This document shows positions 1 to 4,966 of a stretch of 4,966 nt of DNA, piece by piece. Under the pieces are notes generated by a model that saw nothing but the letters and a program-made list of their open reading frames with translations, was not told the origin of the DNA and did no database searches. Location: IMG/VR virus record IMGVR_UViG_2663762992_000006; one strand, 5' to 3'. The first letter of the stretch is position 1, and every line of letters starts with the position of its first letter. The position numbers and the translations under genes were made by a program. This DNA comes from a virus (Duplodnaviria; Heunggongvirae; Uroviricota; Caudoviricetes).

Positions 1-782
1 AAGGTCGTACAACGACGCTTGGCCGTGGAGGCAGCGATTATACGGCAGCCTTGCTGGCGGAGGCTTTACACGCATCTCGTGTTGATATCTGGACCGACGT
101 CCCGGGCATCTACACCACCGATCCACGCGTGGTTTCCGCAGCAAAACGCATTGATGAAATCGCGTTTGCCGAAGCGGCAGAGATGGCAACTTTTGGTGCA
201 AAAGTACTGCATCCGGCAACGTTGCTACCCGCAGTACGCAGCGATATCCCGGTCTTTGTCGGCTCCAGCAAAGACCCACGCGCAGGTGGTACGCTGGTGT
301 GCAATAAAACTGAAAATCCGCCGCTGTTCCGCGCGCTGGCGCTTCGTCGCAATCAGACTCTGCTCACTTTGCACAGCCTGAATATGCTGCATTCTCGCGG
401 TTTCCTCGCGGAAGTTTTCGGCATCCTCGCGCGGCATAATATTTCGGTGGATCTCATCACCACCTCCGAAGTGAGCGTGGCATTAACCCTTGATACCACC
501 GGTTCAACCTCCACTGGCGATACCTTGCTGACGCAATCTCTGCTGATGGAGCTGTCTGCACTATGCCGGGTAGAAGTGGAGGAAGGTCTGGCGCTGGTCG
601 CGTTGATTGGCAATGACCTGTCAAAAGCCTGCGGCGTTGGCAAAGAGGTATTCGGCGTACTGGAACCGTTCAACATTCGCATGATTTGTTACGGCGCATC
701 CAGCCATAACCTGTGCTTCCTGGTGCCAGGCGAAGATGCCGAGCAGGTGGTGCAGAAGCTGCATTTTAATTTGTTTGAGTAA
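1..782 (+). CDS. lysC: Aspartate kinase III (lysine-sensitive aspartokinase), C-terminal portion; 5' end lies outside the window, reading phase starts at nt 3, stop TAA at 780-782
   Basis: Frame-3 translation from nt 3 reads GRTTTLGRGGSDYTAALLAEALHASRVDIWTDVPGIYTTDPRVV... and ends ...GEDAEQVVQKLHFNLFE, which I recognise as the kinase core and C-terminal ACT-domain region of enterobacterial LysC. The ORF is open to the window edge. The other ORFs in the track over 19-682 are out of frame or antisense to it. Confidence 0.93.
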   Translation, partial: GRTTTLGRGGSDYTAALLAEALHASRVDIWTDVPGIYTTDPRVVSAAKRIDEIAFAEAAEMATFGAKVLHPATLLPAVRSDIPVFVGSSKDPRAGGTLVCNKTENPPLFRALALRRNQTLLTLHSLNMLHSRGFLAEVFGILARHNISVDLITTSEVSVALTLDTTGSTSTGDTLLTQSLLMELSALCRVEVEEGLALVALIGNDLSKACGVGKEVFGVLEPFNIRMICYGASSHNLCFLVPGEDAEQVVQKLHFNLFE

Positions 783-836: not shown

Positions 837-1184
837 TTACGAATTACTGCGGCGCTGTTGCTTTTCCGCATGTACGCGTTTCACTATCTTATAAATCCAT
901 TGCAGCGTCAGATTATATTTCTTCGCTAATTCGGCGTAGTTGCGCCCATCGCACTCGCTATAGATTTGGTAGTCACGCTCCGACGCCCGTCCGGAGATCC
1001 CTTTTGGGAAATAAATGCTTTGCCCGCCCCAGTTGCGCATCATTCGGTCGGCAATGGCAAAGCCCACATTTTCCGCCGATGAACTGTCGAGATTGATGCT
1101 TTCAATCAGAACTTGCGATGCATGAAAAGCCAGGTCGTTAATGATCTCCGGTGTCCGGACCATCTCTTTTGATTTTCGTATCAT
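837..1184 (-). CDS. Mor/C-family phage transcriptional activator (Mu middle/late operon regulator-like), 115 aa
   Basis: Complete ORF with ATG at 1184-1182, preceded by GGAGA (complement of 1191-1195) 7 nt upstream, and stop at 839-837. The C-terminal half carries the signature I recall for Mu Mor and C proteins: ...RNWGGQSIYFPKG... (glycine-rich turn followed by Y-[IF]-P-[KR]-G) then ...DGRNYAELAKKYNLTLQWIYKIVKR (HTH-like). Assignment is by motif recall, not search. Confidence 0.8.
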   Translation of the reverse strand: MIRKSKEMVRTPEIINDLAFHASQVLIESINLDSSSAENVGFAIADRMMRNWGGQSIYFPKGISGRASERDYQIYSECDGRNYAELAKKYNLTLQWIYKIVKRVHAEKQQRRSNS

Positions 1185-1390
1185 TTTTCATCTCCATATA
1201 TCTTGCATCCTGAATAAGACCCGATGCGTGTAAAACCACGGATATACGCTAAGCAGTTGTCATTACTGCTACTCAATACATTCAACAAACAAATAAACAA
1301 TCACCAGAAATATAAATTCTTAATATTAATGAACGCATAAATTCACTAAATAAATATATTGTTTGCGTTATGTTTCTTGTCAACAGGAGT

Positions 1391-1451
1391 ATCATTTTAC
1401 ACGATACTGTATGCACATACAGTATTATTTTTACCTGTAGTGTAAAAAGAT
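1391..1451. repeat. Imperfect 12-bp inverted repeat (11/12) flanking the LexA-box palindrome
   Basis: ATCATTTTACAC (1391-1402) pairs with the reverse complement of GTGTAAAAAGAT (1440-1451); the perfect 8-bp core is TTTTACAC / GTGTAAAA. Each arm contains a TTTACA hexamer resembling a -35 element, one on each strand. Confidence 0.5.
1405..1424. promoter_or_regulatory. Candidate LexA operator (SOS box)
   Basis: TACTGTATGCACATACAGTA matches the enterobacterial LexA consensus TACTG(TA)5CAGTA in both conserved half-sites (TACTGTAT / ATACAGTA, CTGT-N8-ACAG). It differs only at three central, weakly conserved positions and is itself a 10+10 inverted repeat with a 2-bp centre. Location is 221 bp upstream of the Mor-like start and 297 bp upstream of the holin-like start. 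Confidence 0.65.
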
Positions 1452-1720
1452 CGTTTCCCTCACAGTCGCTGACTTTCTTAAACAAACTTTAAAAATCAAA
1501 TAACTACTGACTATTCCTACGATTCACCATCATCTTTTCCCTGCATAATGACGCGCTTATTCGCGAGGTCACCTTTTGCTCTTTAATTGCTGAGTGGATT
1601 TATTAGCGGGCATGTTCATTTATAGAGAATCTATTTTTTAAAGTTATTTATTAAAGCTTTTTTCATTCTTCACTGGCGGGTTCTGGCGACACTAAACGCT
1701 CACTTATCAGGAGATACCGT

Positions 1721-2008
1721 ATGAAAAAAGTCACTCTTCCCCGGCTTTCCGGTTGGCTGGTCGCTTCCGTCGCGCTGTTTGTCGTGATCGGCTGGACCTC
1801 TTCAGCACAGATCCCGGTCGTCATTTATAAACTAAGCCTGGTTTCGCTTTCCGCGGTGCTGGGATACTGGCTCGATCGCAGTTTGTTCCCATGGGCACGG
1901 CCTGACTCTTTTAGCCCATGGAAGGAACCGCGTTGCTGCGCGGCGGCAATGATTCGCCGCGCCATCATCGTTGCCGCCGTCTGTCTTTCCGTCGCCTTAG
2001 GGCTATAG
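1721..2008 (+). CDS. Small integral membrane protein with three predicted TM segments; putative holin or lysis-associated membrane protein, 95 aa
   Basis: ATG at 1721 with AGGAGA (1709-1714) 6 nt upstream; stop TAG at 2006-2008. Hydrophobic stretches LSGWLVASVALFVVIGW, VVIYKLSLVSLSAVLGYWL and AIIVAAVCLSVALGL. It sits immediately upstream of a peptidoglycan-degrading enzyme gene. Atypical for a holin in ending inside the last hydrophobic segment with no charged C-terminal tail. Confidence 0.6.
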   Translation: MKKVTLPRLSGWLVASVALFVVIGWTSSAQIPVVIYKLSLVSLSAVLGYWLDRSLFPWARPDSFSPWKEPRCCAAAMIRRAIIVAAVCLSVALGL

Positions 2009-2010
2009 TG

Positions 2011-2616
2011 ATGTGGCTGAAATATATCGCGTCTATGATTATTTTCGTTCTTTTCCCTCTTAACGCCTCTGAACCGCCGCGAGCCTCTCTGGCATGGCGA
2101 AACGAACTAATTCGTACCGCTCGAGAAGTCTGGGGACTGAACGCCCCAGTGGCCGACTTTGCCGGGCAATTACACCAGGAGTCCGCCTGGCAGCCAATGG
2201 TACGTTCCCCCGTTGGCGCACAAGGCATGGCGCAATTTATGCCTGCCACAGCGACATGGATAAGCCTGTTGTATCCGCAGCTACGTGAAAATAAGCCCTA
2301 TAACCCAACCTGGGCGATTCGCGCACTGGTGCAATATGACCAGCATTTGTGGAAAAACATCTCAGCGAAAAATGATTGTCAGCGTATGGCGTTTACCCTA
2401 AGCGCCTATAACGGCGGTCAGGGATGGGTTAACCGGGATAAAAAACTGGCTGCATCCAAAGGGTTAGATGCCACTAGCTGGTTTGGTCATGTCGAGCGAG
2501 TCAACGCCGGGCGCAGCGCCACGAACTGGCGAGAAAATCGTCGCTATCCGAAGATGATCCTCTATCAACATGCCGCCCGCTACCTACTCTGGGGGCAGGC
2601 AAGCTGTCTTCATTAA
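2011..2616 (+). CDS. Family-1 (SLT-domain) lytic transglycosylase with N-terminal signal peptide or signal-anchor; endolysin-like, 201 aa
   Basis: I place the start at ATG 2011, 3 nt after the holin-like stop; the track ORF starts at 1918, but that upstream extension overlaps the holin gene. The N-terminus MWLKYIASMIIFVLFPLNA-SEPP looks like a Sec signal peptide. SLT motifs are present: catalytic Q-E-S (QESAWQP), GAQGMAQFMPATA, and AYNGG. Stop TAA at 2614-2616. Confidence 0.85.
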   Translation: MWLKYIASMIIFVLFPLNASEPPRASLAWRNELIRTAREVWGLNAPVADFAGQLHQESAWQPMVRSPVGAQGMAQFMPATATWISLLYPQLRENKPYNPTWAIRALVQYDQHLWKNISAKNDCQRMAFTLSAYNGGQGWVNRDKKLAASKGLDATSWFGHVERVNAGRSATNWRENRRYPKMILYQHAARYLLWGQASCLH

Positions 2617-2628
2617 TCAGAGGGGCCG

Positions 2629-2943
2629 ATGAAACTCAGTATCGATTTTTGGGAAGTGATCTCCCTTATGCTTTCCTTCGTTGGATTAATGTTTGCTGCC
2701 GGAAAATTGCTGTTAGCGCAAATTGAAAAAAGACTTAATGAGCGTTTTGAATCTCTGGAAAACGCGCGCCGGGAATCAGAAACAAGTTGGTCGAAACTGG
2801 AAAGAGAATTTCTCGAATTTCGTGCCGAGCTTCCGCTGCATTATGTCCGCAGAGAAGATTATCTTCGTGGCCAGGCAGTATTAGAAGCAAAGCTGGATGC
2901 CTTATATAGCAAAATAGAGCTATTACAACGCGGTAGCTATTAA
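2629..2943 (+). CDS. Membrane-anchored coiled-coil protein; candidate lysis accessory (i-spanin-like or Mu-type lysis-cassette protein), 104 aa
   Basis: ATG at 2629 with GAGGGG upstream. N-terminal hydrophobic helix ISLMLSFVGLMFAAGKLLLA, followed by a highly charged heptad-like region (QIEKRLNERFESLENARRESETSWSKLEREFLEFRAEL...LEAKLDALYSKIELLQ). Its position right after the transglycosylase fits a lysis cassette. No partner outer-membrane lipoprotein (o-spanin) was found. Confidence 0.6.
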   Translation: MKLSIDFWEVISLMLSFVGLMFAAGKLLLAQIEKRLNERFESLENARRESETSWSKLEREFLEFRAELPLHYVRREDYLRGQAVLEAKLDALYSKIELLQRGSY

Positions 2944-3060
2944 ATTCAATTTTTTCTCTAAAGCAGATTAAAAGATTCTCCACCTTCATTACGTCAGAAT
3001 ACATTTCAACGATAACGAAGTGAGCGTTAACGAATCAGCGATAATTAAGGAACACCCTAT

Positions 3061-3516
3061 ATGGAAATTTTATCAGTAATGAATTCTGTTGTGACCAGAT
3101 TACGTGAACAGAATCCCGAAATGGATGTATCTATTTCATCGGTTGATACCCATAAATATATTCCGCAGACGCAGCAAGTTACAGTGATTATTAATTATAG
3201 CGGTTCTCTATTTGCCATGCCTGAAAGCAGTGATGCTCTCGTGCAACAGCAAACGCTCCGCTTAACCGCCACCGTTATTGTTGGCAAAAATTGTGATGCG
3301 TTAAACGCACTGGACCGCATACGCAGCGCATTGGGTGGCCTTCAGCTTCCTGATTGCGATCGTCTTCTTTGGCTTGAAAAAGAAATTAATACGGGTGAGA
3401 GCGGCGGTTTCTGCCGCTACATCCTGGAAATGGCGACCAGCTCGCTGTTTATCGCTGAACAGGAAAACACGGATCTTCCCCTACTTACGGAAGTTAATTA
3501 CGAGGAAACTGAATGA
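3061..3516 (+). CDS. Phage tail-associated protein, likely Mu gp37-like (tail terminator / sheath completion family), 151 aa
   Basis: ATG at 3061 with AAGGAA RBS (3047-3052). Two genes upstream of the sheath gene and translationally coupled to the next ORF through an ATGA overlap at 3513-3516, which matches the Mu gpK-gp38-gpL order as I recall it. Family call rests on synteny and recollection, not measured similarity. Confidence 0.55.
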   Translation: MEILSVMNSVVTRLREQNPEMDVSISSVDTHKYIPQTQQVTVIINYSGSLFAMPESSDALVQQQTLRLTATVIVGKNCDALNALDRIRSALGGLQLPDCDRLLWLEKEINTGESGGFCRYILEMATSSLFIAEQENTDLPLLTEVNYEETE

Positions 3517-3710
3517 AATACATCTACAACGGCCCGGCAAGCGGCGTCACCCTTGCCGACGGACAAGAAATCTTATTGTGGCCGAACAGTGAAATTGATC
3601 TGCCAGAAGACAACGAGTGGGTCATGACCATGATTGCCCGCAATCACCTGACTTCTGTCATCACTCAGGAAGAACAAAATAACGGAGAGGAAATTGTACA
3701 TGGCAGCTAA
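3513..3710 (+). CDS. Small conserved phage protein immediately upstream of the sheath gene (Mu gp38-like position), 65 aa
   Basis: ATG at 3513 overlaps the upstream stop (ATGA); its own stop TAA at 3708-3710 overlaps the sheath start region. Acidic, with no TM segment. Function unknown. Confidence 0.55.
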   Translation: MKYIYNGPASGVTLADGQEILLWPNSEIDLPEDNEWVMTMIARNHLTSVITQEEQNNGEEIVHGS

Positions 3711-4966
3711 TTATCTGCACGGTGTAGAAACCATTGAAATTGAAACCGGCCCGCGTCCCGTTAAAGCGGTAAAATCCGCCGTCATCGCTTTAATCGGTAC
3801 GGCCCCCTGTGGTCCGGTAAATAAACCAACATTATGCCTTTCTGAAAGCGATGCTGCGCAGTTTGGCTCAACTCAGGCTAACTTTACGATCCCACAGGCG
3901 CTGAAGGCGATTTATGACCACGGTGCCGGTACGGTGGTGGTAATTAATGTGCTGGATCCGGTAAAACATGGACTGCATGTTGCCAATGAAACCATTACGT
4001 TCAATAGTGCCGATAAAGCTAAATTAGCTCATCCGGGAGTAAGTTCAGTAATATTAAGACCAGGTACCAGTTCCACTACGTACAAAAATACATCTTACAA
4101 TGTTAATGCCGCAGATGGCGTTATAACCCGTACCGGAACTGAAATCCCGGCAGGGGCGAAGGTTTACGCGACGTATACCTATGTTGATCCTACAAAGGTC
4201 ACCGCAGCCGATATTATCGGTGCCGTAAATACCGCAGGCGACCGCACAGGGATGAAACTCCTTCAGGACACCTATAACCTGTATGGTTTCTACGCCAAAA
4301 TCCTGCTTGCTCCCGTGTTCTGTACGCAAAAATCAGTAACTACCGAGCTGATTGCACAAGCGGAAAAACTCGGTGCGATTACCTACATTGATGCCCCGAT
4401 TGGGACGACATTCCAGCAGGTATTGGCAGGACGCAGTTCGCAAGGCGCTATCAACTTCAATACCAGCTCTGATCGTGCGCGTTTATGTTACCCACACGTC
4501 AAAGTTTACGATGGCATCACTAACCAGGAAGTTCTCGAACCGCTCTCTTCGCGCGCTGCCGGGCTACGTGCCAAAGTAGACCTCGAAAAAGGTTTCTGGT
4601 GGAGCAACTCAAACCAGGAAATTCAGGGTATTACCGGTATTGAACGTTCGCTTTCCGCAATGATTGATGATCCTCAAAGCGAAGTGAATCAGCTCAACGA
4701 AAACGGCATTACCACTATTTTCAATAGTTACGGCTCTGGTCTGCGCTTGTGGGGCAACCGCACAGCGGCATGGCCTACCGTGACCCATATGCGTAACTTT
4801 GAAAACGTCCGCCGGACAGGCGATGTAATTAATGAGTCAATCCGTTATTTCAGTCAGCAGTATATTGATATGCCGATTAATCAGGCGCTGATTGATGCCC
4901 TGACCGAATCAGGCATCATTCAGGATCAACACCGGGCCGCGGATTTCTGTGTCGTCCAACTGTTGC
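3700..4966 (+). CDS. Contractile phage tail sheath protein (Mu gpL-like myovirus sheath), N-terminal about 422 aa; 3'-truncated by window edge
   Basis: ATG at 3700 with GGAGAGG (3685-3691) upstream; I translated by hand to the window end with no stop codon. N-terminus MAANYLHGVETIEIETGPRPVKAV... and the later NSYGSGLRLWGNRTAAWPT (sheath-type G-[LV]-R-[LV]-W-G-x-R-T signature) are characteristic of phage and tailocin sheath proteins. Absent from the ORF track only because it has no in-window stop. Confidence 0.88.
   Translation, partial: MAANYLHGVETIEIETGPRPVKAVKSAVIALIGTAPCGPVNKPTLCLSESDAAQFGSTQANFTIPQALKAIYDHGAGTVVVINVLDPVKHGLHVANETITFNSADKAKLAHPGVSSVILRPGTSSTTYKNTSYNVNAADGVITRTGTEIPAGAKVYATYTYVDPTKVTAADIIGAVNTAGDRTGMKLLQDTYNLYGFYAKILLAPVFCTQKSVTTELIAQAEKLGAITYIDAPIGTTFQQVLAGRSSQGAINFNTSSDRARLCYPHVKVYDGITNQEVLEPLSSRAAGLRAKVDLEKGFWWSNSNQEIQGITGIERSLSAMIDDPQSEVNQLNENGITTIFNSYGSGLRLWGNRTAAWPTVTHMRNFENVRRTGDVINESIRYFSQQYIDMPINQALIDALTESGIIQDQHRAADFCVVQLL

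Follow-up and report, generated by a model that had tools for sequence, protein, structure and literature searches.

In the PrtR/PrtN system of pyocins, a damage-sensitive repressor holds back an activator, which in turn controls the tail/lysis operon of a chromosomal headless-tail bacteriocin. A comparable two-tier arrangement is considered here for a contractile-tail and lysis cluster of E. coli, in which a near-consensus LexA operator (SOS box) lies beside a gene for a Mor/C-family transcription activator, referred to below as mor. The box and the first genes of the cluster were analyzed in a stretch of 4,966 nucleotides, IMG/VR record IMGVR_UViG_2663762992_000006 (the window), which up to position 4912 is E. 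coli chromosome and identical to strain A10. The pyocin system differs from this locus in its components. PrtR is a dedicated repressor of the S24 family and PrtN is not a member of the Mor family, whereas here the two tiers would be formed by host LexA and a Mor/C-type protein.

The RdgA/RdgB pair of Pectobacterium, which according to work of Liu, Chatterjee and Chatterjee from 1994 reportedly controls carotovoricin and pectin lyase, resembles the proposed circuit in that DNA damage leads to a small Mor-like activator (RdgB) and from there to a Mu-type tailocin and lysis. It differs in having a dedicated cI/LexA-like repressor, RdgA, which is cleaved with the help of RecA; here a LexA box is found and no such gene. 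A homolog of the mor-like protein, gp32 of the BcepMu-like phage phiE255, is annotated as "DNA-binding protein RdgB". A study by McEvoy et al. is said to have dealt with the rdg locus and not with LexA. This study is cited in a 2026 paper for regulation of carotovoricin "via the global repressor LexA"; the same paper describes carotovoricin as a Mu-type tailocin whose cluster has no dedicated essential repressor (PMC13566846). Direct LexA control of carotovoricin may not have been shown previously. Because the dedicated repressor gene that defines both systems is absent, the present locus is of neither the PrtR/PrtN nor the RdgA/RdgB type. A sequence-only reading that preceded this analysis had likewise set the locus apart from the logic of lambda and of PrtR/PrtN, and the annotation agrees with it: in strain A10, the interval from lysC to yjbD has no annotated gene for a dedicated repressor of the S24/cI, PrtR or RdgA type.

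Colicin operons, whose toxin and lysis genes are repressed directly by LexA, share with this locus the lack of a private repressor and would also share the position of a host LexA site at the promoter of a suicidal bacteriocin-release operon. A typical colicin promoter has two LexA boxes that overlap, and no activator is required. Colicin operons thereby differ from the present arrangement, which has a single box, a Mor-type activator gene and candidate late promoters without a -35 element; with one box in place of a tandem pair, the locus is not of the colicin type. LexA-controlled prophage induction genes are exemplified by tum of coliphage 186 and the antirepressors of the Salmonella Gifsy prophages (Lemire et al. 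2011, as cited in PMC8072944). In these cases, too, a LexA box is located on a mobile element and SOS triggers the lytic program via one small regulatory gene. The products of these genes are antirepressors that inactivate a phage repressor, whereas here no repressor was found and the candidate target is a transcription activator. Mor and C of phage Mu and gp01 of BcepMu belong to the same activator family as the protein encoded here, and the late promoters of these phages, like the candidate late promoters here, combine a -10 element and an upstream conserved element with the lack of a -35 element. Mu and BcepMu differ in that the early operon is under the phage's own repressor. An E. coli ST131 "tailocin" paper was considered as a possible match and rejected, the element described there being different and P2-like. 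Bacteriocins induced by SOS are familiar, as are LexA boxes carried by mobile elements; no paper was found that combines host LexA control with a Mor/C activator in a tailocin of BcepMu type.

The LexA box and its conservation

The box, TACTGTATGCACATACAGTA, is a perfect 9+2+9 palindrome with both LexA half-sites intact, in agreement with the sequence-only reading. A repeat finder reported 10-nt arms at 1404-1413 and 1416-1425 that are 100% complementary across a 2-nt gap. All 8 flanking and half-site consensus bases are matched, and the 3 mismatches to TACTG(TA)5CAGTA fall on the low-information central positions 9, 10 and 12. The exact pattern CTGT-N8-ACAG, at 1407-1422, is present in a single copy in the window as well as in the surrounding 41 kb of strain A10. 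Scoring by heterology index, which had been suggested as a check, was performed with a matrix of 27 E. coli LexA sites, on which absolute values are approximate; it yielded 3.68 for the box, compared with 4.53 for recA and 3.64 for sulA. On the same matrix the 27 known sites span 1.2-9.7, a range that includes the box, and the score of the next best 20-mer was 15.1 within the window and 11.2 within the 41 kb. No site at or below 3.68 was found in 4 Mb of random sequence, where the lowest values were 4.68 and 4.91 (2 Mb at 30% GC and 2 Mb at 50% GC). By these scores the box is certainly not due to chance, and it is very probably bound by LexA in vivo. A second LexA site in the cluster was also considered and rejected, the best remaining 20-mer scoring 11.2 or worse.

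The index also bore out the earlier comparison with strong chromosomal SOS boxes. The more specific label "sulA-type" was slightly off, as the box has 4 differences from what we take to be the sulA box and 2 from what we take to be the recA box. The GC content of the control region had been given as roughly 24%; the values obtained were 27.6% for 1280-1500, 29% for 1250-1520 and 34% for the whole intergenic region (1185-1720). The placement of the box between the Mor-family gene and the holin/lysis/tail operon was confirmed, the box lying 220 bp from the mor start codon.

The conservation of the box was followed in species genomes, in contigs encoding homologous Mor proteins and in IMG/VR relatives. 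Most related loci have a box at the homologous place, with heterology indices of 0.4-5.1, including 22 of 25 close IMG/VR relatives. Box-bearing loci were found in E. coli, with at least six box alleles, in Salmonella, where one example (TACTGTATATATATACAGTT) is almost consensus, and in Dryocola, Phytobacter, Superficieibacter and several metagenomic lineages. The distance from the box to the mor ATG is 219-244 bp, or 291 bp in two insertion-carrying copies. Related loci have a mean identity of only 58% in the intergenic DNA around the box. Across 26 unique sequences, the half-sites of intact copies are invariant between genera and the box center is polymorphic. The same distribution was seen within nine E. 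coli-type alleles, in which all four central bases (1413-1416) vary, with the tetramers GCAC, ACAT, ACAC, GTGC, GTGT and ACGT, and the half-sites are constant. The sole E. coli-type change outside the center is A1406G, giving TGCTGT, a variant that we take to occur in the box of the lexA gene itself. Invariant half-sites around a freely changing center are the pattern expected under selection for LexA binding. In the lineage represented by loci L048-50, the mor/holin/SLT/gp37 module has kept the box and does not adjoin lysC, which indicates that the box belongs to the element and not to the lysC locus. A search for LexA-like sites with a heterology index below 10 gave none within the initial 9 kb of BcepMu and none around mor in Pasteurellaceae and other distant Mu-like loci, where Mor is ~43-45% identical.

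Positions 1413-1416 form the densest polymorphism cluster within 300 nt in the nine E. coli alleles, whose heterology indices range from 1.8 to 3.8. Two of the central tetramers, GCAC and GTGC, are exact inversions of the palindrome center. The polymorphism of the center suggests template-switch or hairpin-mediated mutation, or a tuning of LexA affinity.

In two loci, an insertion sequence (IS) of the ISL3 family is located exactly at the box center, at positions homologous to 1411-1418 of the window. The copy in L020 (isolate AF10; ~1617-3506) is ISEc53-like and carries a ClbS/DfsB gene, and the copy in L021 (isolate 648; ~2186-3506) is ISKox3-like and in the opposite orientation. Each is flanked by an 8-bp target duplication that corresponds to the middle 8 bp of the box (ATGCACAT and ATACATAT), and the insertions represent at least two independent events. 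Because the IS separates the half-sites, LexA binding must be abolished in these copies. The intergenic match is split at ~1411 in ~11 of 197 E. coli genomes, of which the two described here were examined.

Box loss or broken box spacing was also found in decayed copies (L025/26, L031 and L034). In L025 and L026, which are Salmonella loci of the Stanley type, an intact mor adjoins lysC, the tail cluster and the box are lost, and a hexapeptide-repeat transferase gene stands in place of the lysis genes. Such mor-only remnants are present in many Salmonella; the Mor protein cluster comprises 332 member sequences.

Candidate promoters of the control region and the Mor-like activator

Two promoter candidates, one rightward (P1) and one leftward, were modeled across the box (Table 1). 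They overlap fully, in that each -35 falls on the -10 of the opposing candidate, and a single LexA dimer would therefore shut both. P1 is the only promoter-like site reported by a consensus scan of 780-1800. Its expected start, which rests on the consensus match, is at ~1430, heading toward the holin/tail operon. A hexamer-weight scan placed P1 at the same relative position in all eight orthologs scanned. No other sigma-70-like promoter that overlaps the box keeps its position across the box-bearing lineages; the one exception for P1 is L048-50, whose two hexamers are degraded. The motif carrying its -35, CATTTTACAC, is nearly invariant among the 26 unique sequences. For the leftward candidate, a minus-strand A-tract at 1425-1433 occupies the position of a proximal UP subsite, and most lineages have the corresponding T-rich plus-strand tract to the right of their box. 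Transcription toward mor would start at ~1387, and this model places LexA over -37 to -18. The E. coli allele of the window offers a second leftward option, composed of TTTACA (1446 to 1441), a 16-nt spacer and TACTGT (1424 to 1419).

The spacing of the box relative to its neighbors points to mor as the LexA target, because the distance from box to mor varies less (219-230 bp in most loci) than that from box to holin (296-347 bp). No terminator was predicted between the box and the holin gene. To the right of the box lie the conserved blocks AAAAAGATCGTTTCCCTCAC and CTTTAAAAATCAA, the latter resembling the -10 of a second rightward promoter. Both are kept in E. coli, Salmonella, Phytobacter, L045/46 and L048-50 and are altered in a clade of loci that have no box. 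The weight scan returned CTGACT-16-AAAAAT and equivalents at these blocks. By sequence, LexA may act via mor, via the lysis/tail operon or via both.

In Salmonella, the first of the two blocks lies among three GATC (Dam) sites within ~35 bp, which recalls the Dam/OxyR-controlled mom promoter of Mu. An Rfam scan of 780-1800 detected no RNA family at E values up to 1, and the conserved intergenic blocks are thus not explained by a known small RNA or leader. In Salmonella Infantis, a 43-amino acid "hypothetical protein" has been annotated across the box, an entry that looks spurious. By eye, no small open reading frame 3' of the box is conserved between E. coli and Salmonella.

The mor-like protein matched Pfam Mor (PF08765) with E = 6e-38 over 103 of 107 profile positions. 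Matches were also obtained to Mu Mor (1rr7, E = 6e-8) and Mu C (9l0x, E = 7e-5), and the protein is 49.5% identical to BcepMu gp01, which is annotated as "late transcriptional activator". On these matches the assignment to the Mor/C family is firm. In BcepMu, a leftward early operon is transcribed from a promoter in the divergent control region and ends with gp01. Deletion of genes 2-16 from such an operon would leave the arrangement observed here, and a leftward promoter in the intergenic region would therefore be expected for mor.

The holin gene is preceded by a candidate activator-dependent late promoter, in which ATTTTTTAAAGTTATTTATTAAAGC (1633-1657) is followed by the T-rich TTTTTTCATTCTTC (1658-1671) and by a -10-like GACACT (1688-1693). 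Within the intergenic region, conservation is highest in the block 1633-1671, which lies 80-81 bp upstream of the holin ATG in 27 of 27 loci in which both were found. The -10-like element after it is conserved as (G/C)A(T/C)ACT. Fixed spacing and a -10 without a -35 make up the anatomy of an activator-dependent promoter. The Mor dimer of phage Mu binds a 16-bp element centered at -43.5 (PMC4390567). A second conserved promoter-like block, TTTTTTCTCTAAAGCAGATTAAAAGA ... AACGATAACGAAG, lies upstream of the tail genes and is kept between E. coli and Salmonella; in Salmonella it is preceded by a hairpin and a T-run after the lysis genes (by eye). The 20-mer upstream of the holin gene has no second copy in the element and is unique in the 41 kb.

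Proposed mechanism and alternative explanations

In the mechanism that we propose, the element would be a domesticated BcepMu-type (Mu-like) contractile-tail and lysis cluster that has lost the capsid, transposition and repressor genes and has kept one Mor/C-family activator. The operator would sit in the core of the two overlapping divergent promoter candidates, the rightward one for the holin/tail operon and the leftward one for mor. In the undamaged cell, LexA on the operator would silence the divergent control region. Upon DNA damage, RecA-stimulated self-cleavage of LexA would free the operator and the Mor-like protein would be made. It would then activate the -35-less late promoters before the holin gene (1633-1671) and the tail genes (2950-3020), tail particles would be produced and the cell would lyse.

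From the site, its positional conservation and the gene content, we infer LexA occupancy of the box, the promoter or promoters that it blocks, the action of Mor at the late promoters and their dependence on it, and particle production. SOS control of the cluster through the LexA box appears likely. For the whole cascade, from LexA over Mor and the late promoters to tail particles and lysis, the balance tips slightly in favor, and for the step that control passes through mor it is even. The more specific view, in which a repressor-less two-tier switch has LexA gate a Mor/C activator and thereby a conserved R-type tailocin of E. coli, Salmonella and related Enterobacteriaceae, and in which one host operator over the paired divergent promoters has replaced the Mu-like repressor and early operon, is put forward tentatively and a little short of an even balance. 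A strong site, its positional conservation and the lack of a repressor gene make wiring to host LexA the simplest reading, and direct SOS wiring without a dedicated repressor is well supported by the sequence data. This part of the sequence-only reading was strengthened by our results. Its further step, LexA control of mor, is plausible at most, and the best consensus promoter over the box faces the holin gene. One argument in favor of mor as target is that a cell could hardly carry a lysis operon whose activator is unregulated.

Indirect expression data for the activator gene come from Salmonella. In S. Typhimurium 14028, STM14_5073 was up 4.08-fold with nalidixic acid (RNA-seq, PMC8072944 Dataset S1). 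This gene is the likely mor ortholog, as it has a length of 348 bp and sits where the neighbor of lysC is expected from the distance to malE. In the Salmonella genomes examined, which are others than 14028, a near-consensus LexA box is found ~226 bp upstream of the mor ortholog. An indole paper lists only STM4213 of the cluster, as induced.

Several observations weigh against control of the cluster by LexA through mor. The only conserved consensus promoter over the box faces the lysis/tail operon, away from mor, and the leftward candidate has 7 of 12 hexamer matches by our own count, which is below the threshold of the consensus scan. In L048-50 both modeled promoters have lost key bases and the box is kept; neither promoter model can therefore be complete. 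By eye, the two late blocks have no motif in common and contain no Mu-like 5-6-5 dyad. A clade comprising L027/28, L055, L058 and L059 has an intact cluster and, at the position homologous to 1395-1425 of the window, a TATAAT-like hexamer in place of the box. Its Mor is 88-90% identical, the lysis and early tail genes are intact, and the TTTACA motif is lost as well; one Mor of this clade is named Enterobacter hormaechei by a source. LexA control is thus not obligatory for the module. The approximate nature of the heterology indices also counts on this side. In the Salmonella data, no lysis or tail gene of the STM14_505x-507x range is among the regulated genes listed (PMC8072944 Dataset S1), and STM14_5073 is not among the 48 SOS loci of the authors (PMC8072944). 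The nalidixic acid dataset is moreover confounded by growth phase, with ribosomal protein genes >20-fold up (PMC8072944), and the 4-fold change in STM14_5073 is for this reason not SOS-specific. In the literature, neither a LexA plus Mor wiring nor experiments on this element were found.

The main alternative is a colicin-like arrangement, in which LexA represses P1 only and mor is transcribed from a LexA-independent promoter in an auxiliary role, for example before the tail genes. P1 is the sole promoter of consensus quality over the box, with its position shared by all orthologs scanned, and a transcript from it would meet no predicted terminator before the holin gene. In Dryocola, one CATTTTACAC substitution spares the plus-strand -35, and the minus-strand -10 would become TAAAGT. 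The clade without a box keeps the plus-strand TATAAT-like hexamer at this place, which suggests that the rightward promoter is the conserved feature. However, the leader of a P1 transcript would be 290 nt long and would cross a second, better conserved promoter-like block with fixed holin spacing, and the spacing from the box is better kept toward mor than toward the holin gene. In Salmonella treated with nalidixic acid, the mor ortholog was listed as induced and the holin and tail genes were not. An unregulated activator of a lethal lysis operon is also hard to square with stable carriage. We regard the colicin-like arrangement as unlikely, though not negligible.

The box might also be a relic operator, bound by LexA in a decaying prophage remnant with no regulatory consequence that matters to the cell. 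This would account for the degraded Salmonella copies (mor without tail genes in L025/26, broken box spacing in L031, replaced tail genes in L034), for the split intergenic matches in E. coli with the box divided by an IS in both cases examined, for the clade that lost the box and for the Salmonella tail genes that were not induced. It is an improbable explanation, as in intact copies the half-sites are invariant across genera and the flanks and center change freely, which points to purifying selection on LexA binding, and as the cluster of strain A10 is complete from holin to tail fibre with intact frames. A palindrome unrelated to LexA, with another dimeric regulator, a hairpin or an insertion hotspot behind it and only a coincidental likeness to an SOS box, would explain the perfect symmetry, the ISL3-family insertions exactly at the center on at least two occasions, and the conservation of the neighboring CATTTTACAC motif, which LexA does not explain. 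However, the conserved positions are the LexA-contacted CTGT/ACAG half-sites at N8 spacing and the variable ones are the uninformative center, the score matches those of bona fide SOS boxes with nothing comparable found by chance, and all hosts are Enterobacterales, which use this LexA motif. We consider this last explanation highly improbable. It is the pattern of selection that makes both the relic and the non-LexA explanations much less likely than control by LexA.

The element and its biological meaning

The features of the window are collected in Table 1.

Table 1. Genes and predicted control elements of the window
Feature	Position	Strand	Remarks
lysC, 3' end	1-782	+	Chromosomal flank of the element
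Mor/C-family transcription activator gene	837-1184	-	115 amino acids; Pfam Mor
Intergenic region	1185-1720		536 bp, AT-rich; between mor-like gene and holin
Candidate leftward mor promoter	1394-1433	-	-10 TAAAAT (1399 to 1394), -35 CTGTAT (1422 to 1417) inside the box
Candidate rightward promoter P1	1396-1423	+	-35 TTTACA (1396-1401), 16-nt spacer, -10 TACAGT (1418-1423) inside the box
LexA operator (SOS box) TACTGTATGCACATACAGTA	1405-1424	palindromic	Heterology index 3.68
Conserved block AAAAAGATCGTTTCCCTCAC	1444-1463	+	Right of the box
Conserved block CTTTAAAAATCAA	1487-1499	+	Resembles the -10 of a second rightward promoter
Candidate activator-dependent late promoter of the lysis operon	1633-1693	+	No -35 match
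Holin	1721-2008	+	Pfam Holin_2-3; RefSeq annotation of strain A10
SLT lytic transglycosylase	2011-2616	+	Pfam SLT; RefSeq annotation of strain A10
Membrane or spanin-like protein	2629-2943	+	Lysis cassette 1721-2943; RefSeq annotation of strain A10
Second conserved promoter-like block, TTTTTTCTCTAAAGCAGATTAAAAGA ... AACGATAACGAAG	2950-3020	+	Upstream of the tail genes
Gp37-family protein	3061-3516	+	Pfam Gp37; start of the tail module
65-amino acid open reading frame	3513-3710	+	Tail module
Tail sheath	3700 onward	+	Pfam Phage_sheath_1; cut at 4912 by the chimeric window end

In strain A10 the cluster spans ~15.6 kb, from lysC to before yjbD (locus L001, 20058-35698). The mor-like gene has lysC on one side and the intergenic region on the other. 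After the sheath follow genes for the tube, tape measure, baseplate and tail fibre; nothing is missing from holin to tail fibre, and the reading frames are intact. No capsid, terminase, packaging, replication, integrase or transposase gene is annotated in it. A headless contractile-tail gene set with its own lysis cassette corresponds to the gene content by which R-type tailocins are recognized, and the cluster is by this measure a putative R-type tailocin. The Gp37, SLT and Holin_2-3 families are presumably of BcepMu type as well. The cluster was found in ~200 of 5426 complete E. coli genomes, always in the chromosome. Locus-tag notes in the Infantis record identify it as the counterpart of the Salmonella LT2 tail-gene cluster ending at STM4219.

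Between the last tail gene and yjbD, on the minus strand, lie a gene for a nucleotidyltransferase-domain protein and one of the slipin family (L001, 35712-37636); these may be cargo of the element, for example a defense pair. The 3' end of the window, 4911-4966, is chimeric. It does not encode tail sheath and matches the core gene rlmG, which is present elsewhere in 5358 of 5426 E. coli genomes. The join is probably a misassembly or join artifact of the source contig.

The element is uncharacterized and widespread in important pathogens. The ISL3 insertions at the box center and the clade without a box are natural variants with which the worth of the wiring to the cell could be gauged. In Salmonella, the site would add a member to a well-studied SOS regulon, from whose published list the gene is absent (PMC8072944). 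If the proposed control is correct, the locus would be a clear case of domestication of a Mu-like transposable phage, in which the repressor and early genes were deleted, the activator was kept and a host LexA box serves as sensor. An undescribed suicide-and-kill device triggered by DNA damage would then be present in about 4% of complete E. coli genomes and in many Salmonella, and carriers exposed to quinolones or other antibiotics that induce SOS would lyse and release tail particles.

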